From Vicinamibacterales bacterium (GTDB lineage Bacteria; Acidobacteriota; Vicinamibacteria; Vicinamibacterales; 2-12-FULL-66-21), in assembly GCA_036257535.1 (NCBI GenBank), contig DATAFJ010000137.1:3540-67539 (forward strand): a stretch of 64,000 nt of DNA. The letters are read 5' to 3'. A model generated the notes under the pieces. The model saw only the letters and a list, made by a program, of their open reading frames with translations, searched no databases and was not told the origin of the DNA. Shown one piece after another: positions 9,145 to 34,869 of this stretch. The first letter of the stretch is position 1. The number at the start of each line of letters is the position of its first letter. Position numbers and translations under genes: made by a program.

Positions 9145-9298
9145 TTACAAACGACGCTCGCCCGCGGCCGGGGGAAGTGGGTGCGAAGCCCACGCGGTGC
9201 CGCCACTGTATGCGAGGCTGCAAGCCTCGCGAGTCAGGATACCCGGCCGACGGCGCGTCCTCCCATCGCACGGCGCGTTGCACGCCGGAAGGAGGCCA
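9145..9298 (+). promoter_or_regulatory. Cobalamin (B12) riboswitch
   Basis: The conserved core GGGGAAGTGGGTGCGAAGCCCACGCGGTGCCGCCACTGT is followed by the B12 box AGTCAGGATACCCGGCC. A downstream CCTCC (9259-9263) can pair with the GGAGG Shine-Dalgarno at 9291-9295 of the receptor gene. Confidence 0.8.
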
Positions 9299-28380: not shown

Positions 28381-29541
28381 ATGCGCATCGAAACGTTCGC
28401 GATGGAGCGGATGCAGTCGACCTGGGAGAACCGCGTCGCGTTCAATCTGTCGGAGAGCGGCGTTCATCCAATGCGGCTTGAGGAGCTCCTGGGAATGGAT
28501 TCGGCGGTACGGGGGGAGACGATCAACCCCGATCTCGTTCGCCTGCTGAAGCAGGAACTGGTCTACACGCAGTCGAACGGGACGCCGGAGCTCCGCCGCG
28601 CGATCGCCCAAATGTATCCCGGCGCAACTGACGAGCACGTCCAGGTCACGAATGGCGGCTCCGAGGCGAACTACATCACCGTGTGGCACCTCGTGGAGCC
28701 GGGCGATGAGGTCGTGATGATGACGCCGACGTACATGCAGGCCTGGGGCCTCGCGCGTGCGTTCGGCGCCGTCGTGAAACCGTGGGCACTTACGGAGCAA
28801 AGCACGCAGCGCGGAGGGCGATGGCGGCCGGATCTGGACGAACTCGCCTCACTCGTCACCTCGCGCACGAAGCTGGTCGTGATCTGCAATCCGAACAACC
28901 CTACGGGGGCGCGCCTCGACGCGGCCGACCTGGACGCGATCGCGCGGATCGCCGACCGCCACGGCGCCTGGATACTGGCGGACGAAATCTACCGCGGCGC
29001 GGAGCCTGACGGGCACGAGACGCCGTCGATCTGGGGACGTTCCGAGCGGGCGATCGTCACCAGCGGCCTGTCGAAGGCGTACGGGCTGCCGGGCCTCCGT
29101 ATCGGCTGGCTGGTTGCGCCGCCGAGCCTGACCGCCACGTTGTGGTCGTATCACGACTACACGACGATCGCTCCCGGTGCGCTGAGCGATCTGCTCGCGC
29201 GAATGGCGCTCGACCCCGAGCGGCGCGGGACGATCATCGAGCGGACCCGCGGGATCATCCGGACGAATTACGAGATGCTGCGCGGCTGGCTCGACCCGCG
29301 AGCTGAGGGCTTCCAGCACATCACTCCCGAAGCGGGAGCGATCGCGTTCGTCCGGTACCGTCACGGCATCAACTCGACCGAACTGGTGACGCGCCTGCGC
29401 GATCGGCACAGCGTGCTGCTCGTGCCGGGCGACCACTTTCACATGGACGGCTACCTCCGAATCGGATTCGGTACCGAGCCGGCGATCCTCACCGAAGGTC
29501 TTCGGCGGCTCGAGGTGCTGCTCGAGACGGCGGCGGTCTGA
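28381..29541 (+). CDS. Class I/II pyridoxal-phosphate-dependent aminotransferase
   Basis: Y..S.G.PELR.AIA, NPNNPTGA, GLSKAYGLPGLRIGW (PLP lysine) and a fold-type I layout. Confidence 0.85.
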   Translation: MRIETFAMERMQSTWENRVAFNLSESGVHPMRLEELLGMDSAVRGETINPDLVRLLKQELVYTQSNGTPELRRAIAQMYPGATDEHVQVTNGGSEANYITVWHLVEPGDEVVMMTPTYMQAWGLARAFGAVVKPWALTEQSTQRGGRWRPDLDELASLVTSRTKLVVICNPNNPTGARLDAADLDAIARIADRHGAWILADEIYRGAEPDGHETPSIWGRSERAIVTSGLSKAYGLPGLRIGWLVAPPSLTATLWSYHDYTTIAPGALSDLLARMALDPERRGTIIERTRGIIRTNYEMLRGWLDPRAEGFQHITPEAGAIAFVRYRHGINSTELVTRLRDRHSVLLVPGDHFHMDGYLRIGFGTEPAILTEGLRRLEVLLETAAV

Positions 29542-30626
29542 ACAGGCTCGAGCGGCTGGACCTCGCGCTGGTTGGCTTCGGCAACGTCGGACGTCGTTTC
29601 GTCCGGCTGATCGCCGAGCTGAGCGATCGCCTCGCACAGCAGCACGGCCTCTCGCTCCGCGTCTGCGGCATCGCCACGCTGCGCCATGGCGCGATCTTCG
29701 ACGCGGCCGGCGTCGACGCGGTTCGCGCGGCGCACGCGATTGAATCCGGCAGCGCGCTGCATGCCGATCGTCGCGCCGGAGCCGAGATCATCGAAGGGGG
29801 CGCCCTCGAGCTGATCGAACGCCTGTCGAGTGTGGCAAGCGACGGCAGCGCGGCCCGCGTCCTGATCGAGACCACTCCGCTCAACGTCCAAACCGGCCAG
29901 CCGGCAATAAATCATGTCGAGCGCGCGCTCGAGCGCGGGCTCCACGTGGTGACGGCGAACAAAGGACCCGTCGCGATCAGATGGAAAGAGCTCGATCGCG
30001 CCGCGCGCGAACGTGGCGTCTCGTTCCTGTTCGAAGGCGCCGTCATGGACGGTATCCCCGTCTTCAATTTCGTCCGCGAGACGCTGCCTGCCGTCACGAT
30101 TACCGGCTTCCGCGGCGTGCTGAACAGCACGACGAACCACATCATCACGGCGCTCGAGGATGGCGGCGAGTTCGGCCAGGCGCTCGAAGCGATGCAGCAG
30201 GCGGGCATCGCGGAAGCAGACCCGTCGCTCGACGTCGATGGGTGGGATGCCGCCGCCAAGGCGGCAGCGCTCGCTAACGTTCTGATGGGCGCGGACCTGA
30301 CGCCCGCGGCTGTCGTCCGCACCGGTATCCGCGGTCTGGGTGGCGCAGACGTGCGTGCGGCGGCCGCGCGCGGAACAAGGATCCGGCTCGTCGCATCGGC
30401 AGGCGCCGCAGGCGCTCGTGTCGAACCGGTTGCGCTGCCGGCAGCGGATCCGCTCGCTCAGCTTCGCGGCATGGCAAACGCCGTGATCCTTGAAACCGAT
30501 CTGCTTGGTGAGGTAGCCGTGACTCAGCTGACGGGTGGCCTGACGCAGACGGCGTACGCCCTCGTCAGCGATCTGACGACGGTGGCGAGGCGAATTCGAC
30601 CAGGTCCCGGAGCTCCGGTTCGTTGA
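29538..30626 (+). CDS. hom: Homoserine dehydrogenase (no ACT domain); start codon non-canonical or unresolved
   Basis: The C-terminal part (tracked from GTG 29832) has ANKGP, FEGAVMDGIPV, G.LN.TTN.I and the DV.GWDAA.K catalytic domain. The NAD-binding motif LALVGFGNVGRRF is encoded in the same frame at 29562-29600, with no ATG/GTG/TTG before 29832. CTG 29538 overlaps the aminotransferase TGA (CTGA), and CTG 29556 is an alternative. Confidence 0.7.
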   Translation: MNRLERLDLALVGFGNVGRRFVRLIAELSDRLAQQHGLSLRVCGIATLRHGAIFDAAGVDAVRAAHAIESGSALHADRRAGAEIIEGGALELIERLSSVASDGSAARVLIETTPLNVQTGQPAINHVERALERGLHVVTANKGPVAIRWKELDRAARERGVSFLFEGAVMDGIPVFNFVRETLPAVTITGFRGVLNSTTNHIITALEDGGEFGQALEAMQQAGIAEADPSLDVDGWDAAAKAAALANVLMGADLTPAAVVRTGIRGLGGADVRAAAARGTRIRLVASAGAAGARVEPVALPAADPLAQLRGMANAVILETDLLGEVAVTQLTGGLTQTAYALVSDLTTVARRIRPGPGAPVR

Positions 30627-30831
30627 AGCCTTTCACGACGCGGGTGCCTGCGACGGTCAACGGCACGGTTCGAACGCCGCGGGCAATCAGCTCGCGGTAA
30701 GCTGTGTCGTCTTCTTCGACGTTCTTTTCGACAAAGGGCACGCCGGCGCGTGAAAGGAACTCTTTCACCCTCTGGCAGGCCTGTCAGCTCGGCCCAGTTG
30801 TGTAGACACGAATAATGGGAGTGTCAGGCAT
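30565..30831 (-). CDS. Glutaredoxin-like (YruB/NrdH-type) protein with in-frame TGA at the first redox Cys: candidate selenoprotein (UQAC motif)
   Basis: The minus-strand ATG at 30831 gives MPDTPIIRVYTTGPS-[TGA 30786..30784]-QACQRVKEFLSRAGVPFVEKNVEEDD...TVPLTV..G..V.GF. The TGA aligns with Cys1 of the CxxC in the glutaredoxin fold. A hairpin lies 15 nt downstream. The tracked ORF (30565..30768) begins at an internal GTG. Confidence 0.6.
30750..30768 (-). promoter_or_regulatory. SECIS-like stem-loop downstream of the in-frame UGA
   Basis: The minus strand reads GUGAAAG-AGUUC-CUUUCAC, a 7-bp stem with a 5-nt loop containing GU. It can be extended through an internal loop by GCC/GGC. The loop begins 22 nt after the UGA. 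Confidence 0.45.
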
Positions 30832-30853
30832 TAGGCATTAGGCATTAGGCATT
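30826..30853. repeat. Tandem heptanucleotide array R5: (AGGCATT)x4
   Basis: Read directly. It fills essentially all of the 28-bp spacer between the divergent start codons 30831 (minus) and 30860 (plus). The selenoprotein-candidate ATG lies inside the last unit. Confidence 0.9.
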
Positions 30854-30859
30854 CTGATT

Positions 30860-32568: not shown

Positions 32569-34773
32569 TCAGGCTAGCCTTTCCACGAACGACGTGTCGA
32601 GCCCGTCGCGCCTGAGCTGCGCCACGAGCGCATCGCGCTCGACGGCGTGGCGATACGCCTCGCTCGGGTCGACCAGGCCGCCGCGCACGAGCGAGGCGAG
32701 CGCGTCGTTCAGCGGCGTCATGCCGAGCTTGCGTCCGCTCTGAAGCGCCGCCTGAATCTGAAACAGCTTGCCCTCGGCGATGAGCGATGCGACCGCCGGC
32801 GTATTGAGCAGCAGCTCGCGCGCGGCGACCCGGCCGCCGCCGCGCTTCCGAAGCATGGCCTGCGCGACGACGCCCCGGAGGGTCGATGCGAGCGCGCTTC
32901 TGATCTGCGTCCGCCGTTCGGCCGGCGTCTGCTCGATCAGCCGTTCGATCGCCGGTCCGGCGGCAGGCGCACGCAGGCCGGCGAACACCAGCCGGCCGCC
33001 CTGTGCGGCTTCGACTGCTGCCGCTACGGTTTCGGCGGAACCGAGCTCCTCGACCACGAGCACGTCCGGATCTTCCCGCATGGCCGCCCAGACGGCGGCG
33101 GCGATCTCGTCCCCTTGTCCTCTCACTTCGCGCTGGCTCACGAACGAGCGCTTCGGCTCGTGCAGGAAGAGGATTTGAGTCTCGATCGTGACGACGTGCT
33201 CGCTCCGGGTGCGATTGACGAGATCGACGAAGGCTGCGACGAGCGTGGAGAGGTCGCTGCCGCGCGGTCCGGCCAGAAGCACGAGGCCGTCCGGCACCGC
33301 CGACAACGCCTGGACTTCCTTGGAGAGACCGAGCTGCTCCGCCGAAATGGCTCGAGGCGGCAGCATCCGGAAGATCACGCCCGGCCCGCGATGATCGAAG
33401 AAGCTGAGGCAGCGGACGCGGCCGACCTCCGCCATGTCGCAGATCCACTCGGTCGTCTCGCCGGCACGCACGGCCTCGCGCGTGGGTTCCTGCGCCACGC
33501 TCATCGTGAACGCCTCGACCGTGTCAGGCGTGAGCAGGTCCTCGCCGTCGAGCGTCTGCATCTCGCCGTCCACGCGGACGACCGGCTTGGTCCGCGCCAC
33601 CGCGTAGAGCGCCGACGCGCCGCGCGCCGCGGCGATGCGTAGCAGACGATCGAGATCCGACGGCGCCACGACCTGCGGCGGAGGCGCAGAGTCGCGCGGC
33701 ACACGGGCGATGGGGACCACGACGGCACCACTCCCTTCCTCGAGCTCGTCTTCAGCGACCGTGTAACTCGCCGCCGGCGGCTCGCCTGGCAGAACTCGGG
33801 TCTCTTCCACCGGAGCGACATGACCGAACGTCAACTGGCCCTCGGATTCGAGGACCGCCGCTGTCGGTGCGTGTTGAGGCTCTTCTGCCACCGCCTCCGG
33901 CCGGAGATCGGCCGGCGTCGGCGACACGAGCTGGTATGCGGGTTCAGCCGGGGCCTCGACGGCAGCCGTGATCGGCGGCGGTCCGGCAGCGACCGGCGCT
34001 TCCTGCTCTTCGACCGCGAGTGTCGTGAGCCCCACGACGGGGCTCAGGGTCGGCTTTTCGATCGGGCTTACCGTTTCAGCGGCCATCGGAGCCGGTTCTT
34101 CGACCGCGACCGGGGCGGGCTCTTCGACGGCCACCGGTGCAGGCTCTTCGACGGCCACCAGTGCAGGCTCTTCGACGGCCACCGGTGCAGGCTCTTCGAC
34201 GGCCACCGGTGCAGGCTCTTCGACGGCCACCGGTACAGGTTCTTCGACGGCCACCGGTACAGGTTCTTCGACAGCCACCGGTGCAGCCTCTTCGACGACC
34301 ACTGGTGCGGGCTCTTCGACAGCCACCGGTGCAGCCTCTTCGACGACCTCCTGTGGCGCTTCGGCGATCGGAGTTGGCGCTGGTTCTTCAGCGCCGGCGG
34401 GGGACGTTTCGACCGCGTCGGCCGCCGTAGGCCTCACGTGCCGGATCTCGAGCCAGATGTCCTGTCCGCCACGCGCCGCGATGACGACGAAGCGCGAGCC
34501 GTTTTCGCGATTCGGGAGCTCGTGCTCGACGGCCCCGATTTCCTGCAGCGCCTGTCGCTCGTCCGCGGGGAGGAGCTGGTCCACCATCGCGCCGACGGCG
34601 TCGAGCGTGAGCAGCTTCGACGACAATTCGACCTGCCCCCACACCAGCGGCCCGCGGAACTCGTTCATCGCGGTACGCGACGTGACGACGTACGGCTTTT
34701 CGCCGACGTGCATGACGAGCGCGTCGCCGTCCAGCCGGACGATTGCAGACAGGAGCGAGTCGATCAGTGACAT
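32569..34773 (-). CDS. PilT-like protein with degenerate ATPase motifs, an extra N-terminal PilT_N-like domain and a Pro/Val/Glu-rich tandem-repeat linker
   Basis: The C-terminal half aligns with PilT block by block, but Walker A is GPRGSDLST (vs GPTGSGKST), the Asp box is TIETQILF, Walker B is DPDVLVVEELGS, and the His box is GGRLVFAGLRA (vs TGHLVFGTLHT). ATG 34773 gives MSLIDSLLSAIVRLDGDALVMHVG.... An alternative GTG lies at 34860. Confidence 0.75.
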   Translation of the reverse strand: MSLIDSLLSAIVRLDGDALVMHVGEKPYVVTSRTAMNEFRGPLVWGQVELSSKLLTLDAVGAMVDQLLPADERQALQEIGAVEHELPNRENGSRFVVIAARGGQDIWLEIRHVRPTAADAVETSPAGAEEPAPTPIAEAPQEVVEEAAPVAVEEPAPVVVEEAAPVAVEEPVPVAVEEPVPVAVEEPAPVAVEEPAPVAVEEPALVAVEEPAPVAVEEPAPVAVEEPAPMAAETVSPIEKPTLSPVVGLTTLAVEEQEAPVAAGPPPITAAVEAPAEPAYQLVSPTPADLRPEAVAEEPQHAPTAAVLESEGQLTFGHVAPVEETRVLPGEPPAASYTVAEDELEEGSGAVVVPIARVPRDSAPPPQVVAPSDLDRLLRIAAARGASALYAVARTKPVVRVDGEMQTLDGEDLLTPDTVEAFTMSVAQEPTREAVRAGETTEWICDMAEVGRVRCLSFFDHRGPGVIFRMLPPRAISAEQLGLSKEVQALSAVPDGLVLLAGPRGSDLSTLVAAFVDLVNRTRSEHVVTIETQILFLHEPKRSFVSQREVRGQGDEIAAAVWAAMREDPDVLVVEELGSAETVAAAVEAAQGGRLVFAGLRAPAAGPAIERLIEQTPAERRTQIRSALASTLRGVVAQAMLRKRGGGRVAARELLLNTPAVASLIAEGKLFQIQAALQSGRKLGMTPLNDALASLVRGGLVDPSEAYRHAVERDALVAQLRRDGLDTSFVERLA
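34086..34348. repeat. About 11 tandem copies of a 24-nt unit (ggctcttcgacggccaccggtgca) inside the PilT-like CDS
   Basis: Read directly. It encodes (PVAVEEPA)n with point variants (A/V/L). Confidence 0.9.
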
Positions 34774-34869
34774 CGTGTGCAGGGCCGTGCGATCGCCCGC
34801 AATTCCTTCGCGGCGTCCGGCGTTCGCCGGACCTTCAACTCGAAGTGTCGGAGTCCCCACGACGGTGCT

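Follow-up and report, generated by a model that had tools for sequence, protein, structure and literature searches.

A glutaredoxin-like gene of Vicinamibacterales with an in-frame TGA and a conserved downstream hairpin: a probable selenoprotein gene

A stretch of 64,000 nucleotides of contig DATAFJ010000137.1 from a Vicinamibacterales bacterium (Acidobacteriota), referred to at its full length as the window, carries on its minus strand at 30565..30831 a complete glutaredoxin-like gene (here grx) of 88 codons plus stop. Its start codon, ATG at 30829..30831, belongs to the final copy of a heptamer repeat. Its stop codon, TGA at 30565..30567, falls in the 62 nt over which the gene overlaps the 3' end of a convergent homoserine dehydrogenase gene (hom). 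Codon 16 is an in-frame TGA (30784..30786, minus), which would be read as selenocysteine (Sec, U) in the motif UQAC; the resolving cysteine of this UxxC motif, Cys19, is encoded by TGC at 30775..30777. Shortly behind the motif, at 30750..30768 of the same strand, the mRNA can form the hairpin GUGAAAG-AGUUC-CUUUCAC, which encodes V22-K-E-F-L-S27. In this study, we present the evidence that the locus is very probably a genuine selenoprotein gene, the predicted product being a thioredoxin-fold, glutaredoxin-like protein of 88 residues with the active site U16-Q-A-C19, and we weigh four rival readings which even taken together are improbable.

Results

Translation of the minus strand from 30831 to 30565 yields MPDTPIIRVYTTGPS*QACQRVKEFLS...SSDR* (asterisks denoting stop codons) with a single in-frame TGA. 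Frame, TGA and open reading frame (ORF) coordinates were correctly given in the original prediction, a note made from the sequence alone. The mechanical ORF list holds only a 67-aa piece, starting from GTG 30768. Around the redox motif the read-through product has IIRVYTTGPS-U-QAC-QRVKEFL, which places UxxC between strand beta-1 and helix alpha-1. With U scored as C, the 88-residue product matches the Pfam profile PF00462 (Glutaredoxin) with E = 2.1e-12 (47.5 bits, cut-off 22.9), residues 9-64 aligning to profile positions 3-58 of 60, whereas the 67-aa ORF alone reaches E = 4.1e-6 and matches only from profile position 16. Since the match both improves and extends on read-through, the 21 codons upstream of the 67-aa ORF belong to the domain. 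U16 coincides with the first-Cys position of the profile. The closest solved structures, 7C10 and 7C12 (both 'Glutaredoxin'), are 40% identical over 70 residues (E = 1.6e-11) and carry CPHC and CPHS, respectively, each then followed by FTVKEFLS. Profile match and alignment to the CPHC of 7C10 uphold the earlier claim that the TGA takes the place of the first Cys of CxxC in a complete glutaredoxin layout. The cis-Pro motif TVP is present; the classical glutathione-binding motif, GG-x-dD, is not evident. Disabling mutations beyond the TGA were looked for in the frame and none was found, nor is there a second in-frame TGA near the C-terminus, the protein ending SSDR-TGA. The window forms part of contig Ga0392385_0000001 (76,137 bp) of JGI metagenome 3300037523. 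Concerning the use of TGA in general, it is the ordinary stop of 19 of the 39 called genes on this contig, so there is no genome-wide reassignment of this codon.

Conservation of the TGA was assessed in 85 loci, namely the window, four Vicinamibacterales/Acidobacteriota genomes and 80 metagenome loci fetched via degenerate peptide patterns and not via nucleotide sequence. Codon 16 is TGA in all of them, at identities down to 47%, and never TAA, TAG or TGY; the codon of Cys19 is TGC or TGT in 70/70 unique sequences. All 45 database relatives are ORFs of 62-70 aa which start from the GTG in the hairpin and begin V/M-K-E-F-L-S; none is full length, and among these 45 close relatives no full-length Cys form was found. 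Nine 50%-cluster representatives (E up to 1e-10) and many weaker ones likewise begin at the hairpin start. Upstream of it, 9-15 codons are conserved with synonymous variation as strand beta-1 (I-I-V-Y-x-G-S-x) and UxxC, the strand being conserved at the amino-acid level but variable at third codon positions. In the closest strains an ATG or GTG start stands directly ahead of the IIVY strand, and two 90%-identical strains (L454, L455) have a GAGAGG or GAGCGG box before the ATG, the GAGAGG of L454 lying 7 nt upstream. The closest genomic relatives are metagenome-assembled genomes (MAGs) labelled Vicinamibacterales or Acidobacteriota, with 73-81% protein identity. They share the gene neighbourhood of the window, i.e. 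a divergent family-III coenzyme A (CoA)-transferase gene and the convergent, overlapping homoserine dehydrogenase gene, and further an aminotransferase, an FGE-sulfatase, SIMPL, RmuC and a SUF cluster.

These data bear on two trivial explanations of the TGA. A sequencing or assembly error, the true codon being TGC, would concern a single base in a metagenome assembly; its probability is negligible, as the independent sample 3300037536 (L453) has the same sequence as the window over the start region, the TGA and the hairpin, and as the TGA is seen in dozens of independent assemblies (JGI, ENA, NCBI, Logan). The other explanation, already named as the alternative in the original prediction, is a pseudogene, i.e. 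a recent TGC-to-TGA nonsense mutation in an ordinary CxxC glutaredoxin. From TGC to TGA it is a one-base change, Cys homologues exist (P0062, with the motif CRAC), and annotation pipelines call just the 67-aa remnant. Yet the TGA is found in 85/85 loci to 47% identity, and several phyla contribute to the at least 120 additional species genomes that have it. Purifying selection acts on the codons upstream, the gene is otherwise free of defects, and in a pseudogene the synonymous sites of a hairpin further downstream would not be preserved. That the related loci might all be copies of a single recent pseudogene is excluded by their 47-99% divergence. The conservation of the TGA and of the upstream codons and the identical independent sample hence dispose of both explanations for practical purposes, the pseudogene retaining an extremely small probability.

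The third rival regards the 67-aa protein from GTG 30768 as the real product and the frame upstream as encoding a short leader peptide or as an untranslated regulatory region, with the hairpin as a translational regulator occluding the GTG. Located in the 5' arm of the hairpin, this GTG could gate initiation, and all gene callers choose it. The resulting protein would be devoid of beta-1 and of the whole redox motif, so that no thioredoxin fold would form, and the upstream 9-15 codons are conserved, with synonymous variation, as beta-1 and UxxC. Starts with a Shine-Dalgarno-like GAGAGG exist upstream of the TGA, and relatives with AKEFLS in place of VKEFLS have GCG, which is no start codon, yet keep the hairpin. 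We regard this reading as very unlikely.

If the gene encodes a selenoprotein, the hairpin would be its selenocysteine insertion sequence (SECIS). The 5' arm (30768..30762), the loop AGUUC (30761..30757) and the 3' arm (30756..30750) follow the UGA such that the hairpin begins 15 nt and the apical loop 22 nt past it. Within the 64 kb of the window the pattern is unique, 0.00 occurrences being expected from 100 shuffles. The core hairpin folds with -6.4 kcal/mol (z = -3.5) and a 45-nt extended, interrupted helix (30737..30781, minus) with -21.8 kcal/mol (z = -2.7). For bacterial SECIS elements, the published bSECIS model (PMC13188914) gives a loop of 3-9 nt, an upper stem of 4-16 bp, a minimum free energy of at most -7.5 kcal/mol, a G at loop position 1 or 2 with, as a rule, G or U next after it, and a spacing of 16-37 nt between UGA and loop. 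The hairpin fits this model, having a 5-nt loop beginning A-G-U, a 7-bp stem, a spacing of 22 nt and, as extended helix, -21.8 kcal/mol. An Rfam scan of the window at gathering thresholds gave no match at the locus and no bacterial SECIS. Sequence, 15-nt/22-nt geometry and GU-containing loop of the hairpin are as originally predicted. The further claim that it is extended by GCC/GGC into a lower stem applies to the window only: when 87 diverse sequences were folded with RNAalifold, exactly the 7-bp stem and the 5-nt loop were retained, and a lower stem conserved across the family was rejected.

Selection on the hairpin itself was examined at the synonymous sites of 70 unique sequences. Three of its codons are identical in 70/70 besides the first, GTG, which is invariant as well (GAG, CTT and TCA); the remaining two are AAA in 56 and AAG in 14 sequences, and TTT in 64 and TTC in 5. 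At conserved residues next to the hairpin, namely R, A, G and a further invariant Leu, three to five different codons occur per residue. This other invariant Leu is encoded by CTC, CTG, TTG or CTA and never by CTT, an upstream Ser has TCA once only, and both CTT and TCA are disfavoured elsewhere in these genes of 65-70% GC. In the aligned set the sole stem change is A to G, by which a G.U pair is preserved; opposite-strand matches of the palindromic hairpin in L094, L109 and L166, which are artefacts of a loose search pattern, were left out of this alignment. In the set retrieved by pattern the stem is fixed by the search pattern, so that no covariation is possible there. For relatives with AKEFLS, a TCG in place of TCA was predicted beforehand if the stem matters, and this held in 2/2 relatives fetched, GCGAAAG-AGUUU-CUUUCGC (L456) and GCGAAGG-AGUUC-CUUUCGC (L457). 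Both show a compensatory change of U:A to C:G, in which the V-to-A replacement on one arm is accompanied by the synonymous change of Ser TCA to TCG on the opposite arm. A relative with VKGYLS (L458) has the stem unchanged and the loop GGUAC, with G-U still at loop positions 2-3. As judged from codon usage and compensation, the hairpin is conserved at the nucleotide level beyond the needs of the protein.

Homologues with Cys lend themselves to a comparison. P0062 (L451), with CRAC, is 47% identical to the window protein and has partly the same gene neighbourhood; U16 aligns with its Cys. It encodes VKQYLS as GTG AAA CAG TAT TTG TCG, a sequence with no fold (0 kcal/mol), and the hairpin is absent from P0077, another Cys homologue. 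The putative SECIS is lost in the Cys-containing homologue.

The machinery for Sec insertion was sought in the window and in the lineage. With ARAGORN, the window proved to be free of tRNA genes, and tRNA-Sec was found neither in 50 grx loci nor in the wider set of them. With E. coli SelA, SelB and SelD as tblastn queries, which proved valid, the window and grx loci totalling 1.37 Mb gave nothing save two weak SelB-like hits, possibly of EF-Tu type. Among species genomes, a generic tRNA-Sec pattern matched at least 120 loci, 99 of those listed being tRNA-SeC by ARAGORN; the matches include the Vicinamibacteria MAGs L231 and L247 and the Acidobacteriota L275. A 30-nt lineage-specific tRNA segment was found in at least 120 further genomes, mostly with Vicinamibacter- names or Acidobacteriota, and ARAGORN called tRNA-SeC in 120/120 listed. 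On the 5.4-Mb contig of a Vicinamibacterales MAG (L337), selD, tRNA-Sec, selB and selA lie side by side, and the proteins score above the cut-offs of the NCBIfam equivalogs TIGR00476 (SelD, 358.7 over 125), TIGR00475 (SelB, 332.2 over 242) and TIGR00474 (SelA, 570.3 over 268). The selD gene of this contig (1758-2846, minus) has an in-frame TGA at the position of the catalytic Cys (AAG-U-AAKLGP) and a possible downstream hairpin whose loop, CGUGC, has G-U at positions 2-3; on these grounds SelD is probably a second selenoprotein in the order. Both tRNA-Sec and a UxxC gene are present in at least five MAGs, CAWARA01 (L145, L348), JACPZV01 (L150, L360), QHWR01 (L197, L367), JANNHC01 (L187, L392) and DATFWL01 (L099, L408), a lower bound in that each list covered 120 of the matches and 80 titles of the second were compared. 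Selenoproteins have been recorded in Acidobacteria before; three families with four selenoproteins are given as of 2006 (PMC1794560) and three selenoprotein genes in Occallatibacter riparius (PMC12013277).

The presence of this machinery matters for the fourth rival, according to which the UGA is recoded as Cys by a selC*-type tRNA-Cys(UCA), or as Trp or Cys by near-cognate suppression, instead of as Sec. Insertion of Sec and of Cys is indistinguishable by sequence alone. According to PMC5389517, selC* tRNAs may deliver Cys at UGA and unusual allo-tRNAs occur in Acidobacteria; selC* tRNA-Cys is described there from anaerobic Firmicutes, Thermodesulfobacteria, Nitrospirae and Proteobacteria and not reported from Acidobacteria. 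The tRNAs of Vicinamibacterales are called tRNA-SeC by ARAGORN and adjoin selA, selB and selD, of which selA and selD would be pointless if Cys alone were inserted. Moreover, an orthologous member of the family, the Grx1 (cGrx1) from Clostridium (Alkaliphilus) oremlandii, occurs natively as a selenoprotein (PMC7642778). Recoding to an amino acid other than Sec is thus unlikely.

The layout TGA-N6-TGY-N6-GTGAARGAGTTNCTTTCAC is present in at least 120 species genomes. About half of the matches listed are Acidobacteriota or Vicinamibacterales; the others belong to Chloroflexota, Clostridia, Bacilli, deltaproteobacteria, Planctomycetota and Armatimonadota, with GC contents of 31-75%. They include cultured Clostridia (Natronincola peptidivorans, Fonticella tunisiensis, Wukongibacter baidiensis) as well as Bacilli (Alicyclobacillus mengziensis, Pseudalkalibacillus, Alkalihalobacillus). 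All matches read ...U-x-x-C-x-x-VKEFLS..., the proteins being otherwise strongly divergent; window protein and Natronincola orthologue (L106) are 43% identical. Since the hairpin layout is exactly matched while protein identity elsewhere is far lower, the peptide VKEFLS would be fixed by the RNA element. The UxxC motif and the 19-nt SECIS hairpin may on this basis behave as one hyper-conserved cassette, a proposal we consider quite possible and make tentatively.

The module is also found in longer proteins. In Chloroflexota, UxxC-VKEFLS is combined with a C-terminal extension of ~100 aa, which in P0093 matches PDZ domains. The extended form, a Grx-PDZ selenoprotein architecture, was seen at L097, L107, L109, L116, L140, L141, L146, L153, L158, L163, L180, L183, L193 and L205 and in P0084 and P0093. 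The bacterial in-ORF version of the hairpin further occurs, at 65-70% GC, in L111 (JBHLNY010000248.1, binned as Promethearchaeota) and L149 (CAZNOC010000069.1, Bifidobacteriaceae), for which mis-binning is likelier than an archaeon with a bacterial-type SECIS.

Discussion

TGA conservation, nucleotide-level conservation of the hairpin, the pairing of Sec and Cys forms and the Sec machinery of the lineage support the interpretation as a selenoprotein that was originally proposed. Several observations weigh against it. No selA, selB, selD or tRNA-Sec lies on the window, nor on the 22.7 kb L092 stretch which reaches 7.9 kb beyond the window start. Co-occurrence with tRNA-Sec was not seen for the closest relatives L001-L004 among the matches listed, and none of the best 120 of about 8000 SelB matches came from these. 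Within the peptide-retrieved set there is no double compensatory change in the stem, both compensatory cases coming from more distant relatives of the PDZ type and small Grx-like type. The core hairpin alone is, with -6.4 kcal/mol, slightly weaker than the threshold of -7.5 kcal/mol, which is reached only with the window-specific extension. Finally, part of V-K-x-x-L is also present in Cys homologues; amino-acid conservation alone is therefore no evidence, and only the synonymous-site pattern counts as such.

On the selenoprotein reading, translation would begin at ATG 30831, and the ribosome would not terminate at the UGA 30786..30784 because the in-ORF hairpin GUGAAAG-AGUUC-CUUUCAC, 15 nt downstream, would serve as a bacterial SECIS. 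It would recruit SelB.GTP.Sec-tRNA(Sec), whereby selenocysteine would be inserted at codon 16. Translation would then run on to the terminal TGA 30567..30565, which is predicted to terminate, being without such a hairpin. In the folded protein, Sec16 at the N-terminus of helix alpha-1 may act as nucleophile on substrate disulfides or sulfenates, and the selenenylsulfide so formed may be resolved by Cys19; for recycling, the protein may depend on thioredoxin reductase or on a low-molecular-weight thiol. The proposed chemistry of Sec16 and Cys19 matches that of C. oremlandii Grx1, for which selenoprotein MsrA is the proposed substrate. No clear hint at function comes from the neighbouring genes, the conserved divergent CoA-transferase and overlapping hom.

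cGrx1 is the closest system studied experimentally. From their sequences, the structures 7C10 and 7C12 appear to be the dithiol and C16S constructs of this protein, and 7C10, 7C12 and 7C13 would all be Sec-to-Cys constructs of it. In PMC7642778, cGrx1 is described as a native selenoprotein, crystallized with Cys in place of the catalytic Sec, and proposed as a reductant of selenoprotein MsrA; as quoted in a citing paper, Kim et al. 2011 is a source for cGrx1 as a selenoprotein. Like cGrx1, the window protein belongs to PF00462, is small (~80 aa), carries U-x-x-C where helix 1 begins and has the VKEFLS peptide directly past the motif. It differs in the motif itself (UQAC versus UPHC), in the host, which is a high-GC soil Vicinamibacterales (Acidobacteriota) and not an anaerobic Firmicute, and in its neighbourhood of divergent CoA-transferase and convergent overlapping hom. 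The Natronincola orthologue L106, with the layout TGA-N6-TGY-N6-GTGAARGAGTTYCTTTCAC, has the same TGA and hairpin; as it shares 80% identity with cGrx1, the hairpin is thereby connected with a protein that has been studied by experiment.

In the catalogue text searched, glutaredoxin (Grx; PF00462, UxxC) counts as one of the prokaryotic selenoprotein families verified by experiment, with early finds from Geobacter sulfurreducens, Alkaliphilus metalliredigenes, Moorella thermoacetica and the Sargasso Sea; for this family that text does not mention Acidobacteria. The window protein has the same Pfam family and motif, an in-ORF bacterial SECIS candidate and Cys homologues. Membership in narrower families was tested with NCBIfam models and rejected, as all scores are below cut-off: YruB (TIGR02196) reaches 57.5 bits against 88.55, NrdH (TIGR02194) 39.5 against 85.75 and Uxx-star (NF041212) 39.8 against 66. 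The label 'YruB/NrdH-type' given originally is right insofar as YruB scores best of the NCBIfam models and size, beta-alpha-beta layout and cis-Pro TVP are shared with both families; it goes too far as a family assignment, the scores being below both cut-offs, and these families, unlike the window protein, are Cys proteins. CVQC and WSGFRP, the hallmarks of NrdH, are absent. With the Uxx-star families (NF041212, NF041211, NF047338) the window protein shares a Grx-like fold and an N-terminal Sec motif; those have UxxT, with another Sec placed three residues ahead of the stop, whereas it has UxxC and no second Sec. The predicted protein is accordingly placed as a Grx-family selenoprotein outside the narrower YruB, NrdH and Uxx-star families. 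What is proposed here is the standard bacterial SelB/SECIS mechanism, in a Grx selenoprotein family known before; the window gene is a new and mis-annotated member of that family.

For annotation this means that the database entries for the protein and its relatives are fragments of 62-70 aa without active site, across many 50%-identity clusters. The known family of Sec-glutaredoxins now extends into Vicinamibacterales; if so, an abundant lineage of soil bacteria would make routine use of selenium-dependent thiol redox chemistry. The distribution of the layout suggests that Grx selenoproteins are considerably commoner than previously held, especially in soil Acidobacteriota. If UxxC and hairpin do form a cassette, this would imply either that a Grx-SECIS module has repeatedly spread by horizontal transfer or that SelB binding has an optimum which is nearly universal, and Sec-glutaredoxins would be common in aerobic soil Acidobacteriota and not 'limited to a few species'. 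The hairpin would be a clean natural example of an RNA element which dictates a peptide motif; its invariant 19 nt, at a constant distance from the UGA, could moreover be used as a simple DNA probe of high specificity in the search for such genes.

Neighbouring features of the window

Upstream of grx, positions 30826-30853 are a perfect 7-nt tandem repeat, four copies of AATGCCT on the gene strand, and the repeat fills the 28-nt gap (30832-30859) between the start of grx and that of the divergent CoA-transferase gene (30860). Each unit holds an ATG, of which the last one alone opens the grx frame. Four copies are also present in L453; the repeat is absent from the 90%-identical L454 and L455, which start MEIIVY... 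A change in copy number would alter promoter spacing and not the reading frame. The divergent pair of grx and a CaiB-BaiF-type CoA-transferase gene is kept in many Acidobacteriota loci (L096, L099, L105, L118, L139, L144, L151, L167, L171, L173, L206) with ~10-30 nt between the starts, so that either each promoter is inside the coding region of the other gene or the mRNAs are leaderless.

On the other side, the 3' ends of grx and of the convergent homoserine dehydrogenase gene overlap at 30565-30626. A C-terminal 'PSPDR*' is conserved in grx as far as distant loci; its counterpart on the opposite strand is the conserved ...ALVSDL... of the dehydrogenase. The dehydrogenase is 70% identical to that of L005 over 357 aa. 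A frameshift due to poor assembly had been suspected in hom and was rejected, since the gene is intact in one frame; it is without a canonical start. At 29538-29560, GAG stands at the position of the relatives' ATG, and no ATG, GTG or TTG follows for 93 more codons. It is for want of a canonical start that JGI calls a 226-aa hom fragment together with a spurious antisense gene. CTG 29538, which overlaps the aminotransferase stop (cTGA), might be a coupled hom start.

Elsewhere in the window, a cobalamin riboswitch (RF00174, 46.8 bits) at 9149-9264 (plus) is the sole Rfam match at gathering threshold. It lies upstream of an operon for a TonB-dependent receptor, an ABC ATPase, a FecCD permease and a periplasmic binding protein. 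In the N-terminal half of a gene for a T2SSE-family ATPase (32569-34860, minus), 'EEPAPVAV' forms a long series of almost identical repeats, and the protein has 726-763 aa here, compared with 695 aa in the orthologue of the closest relative.

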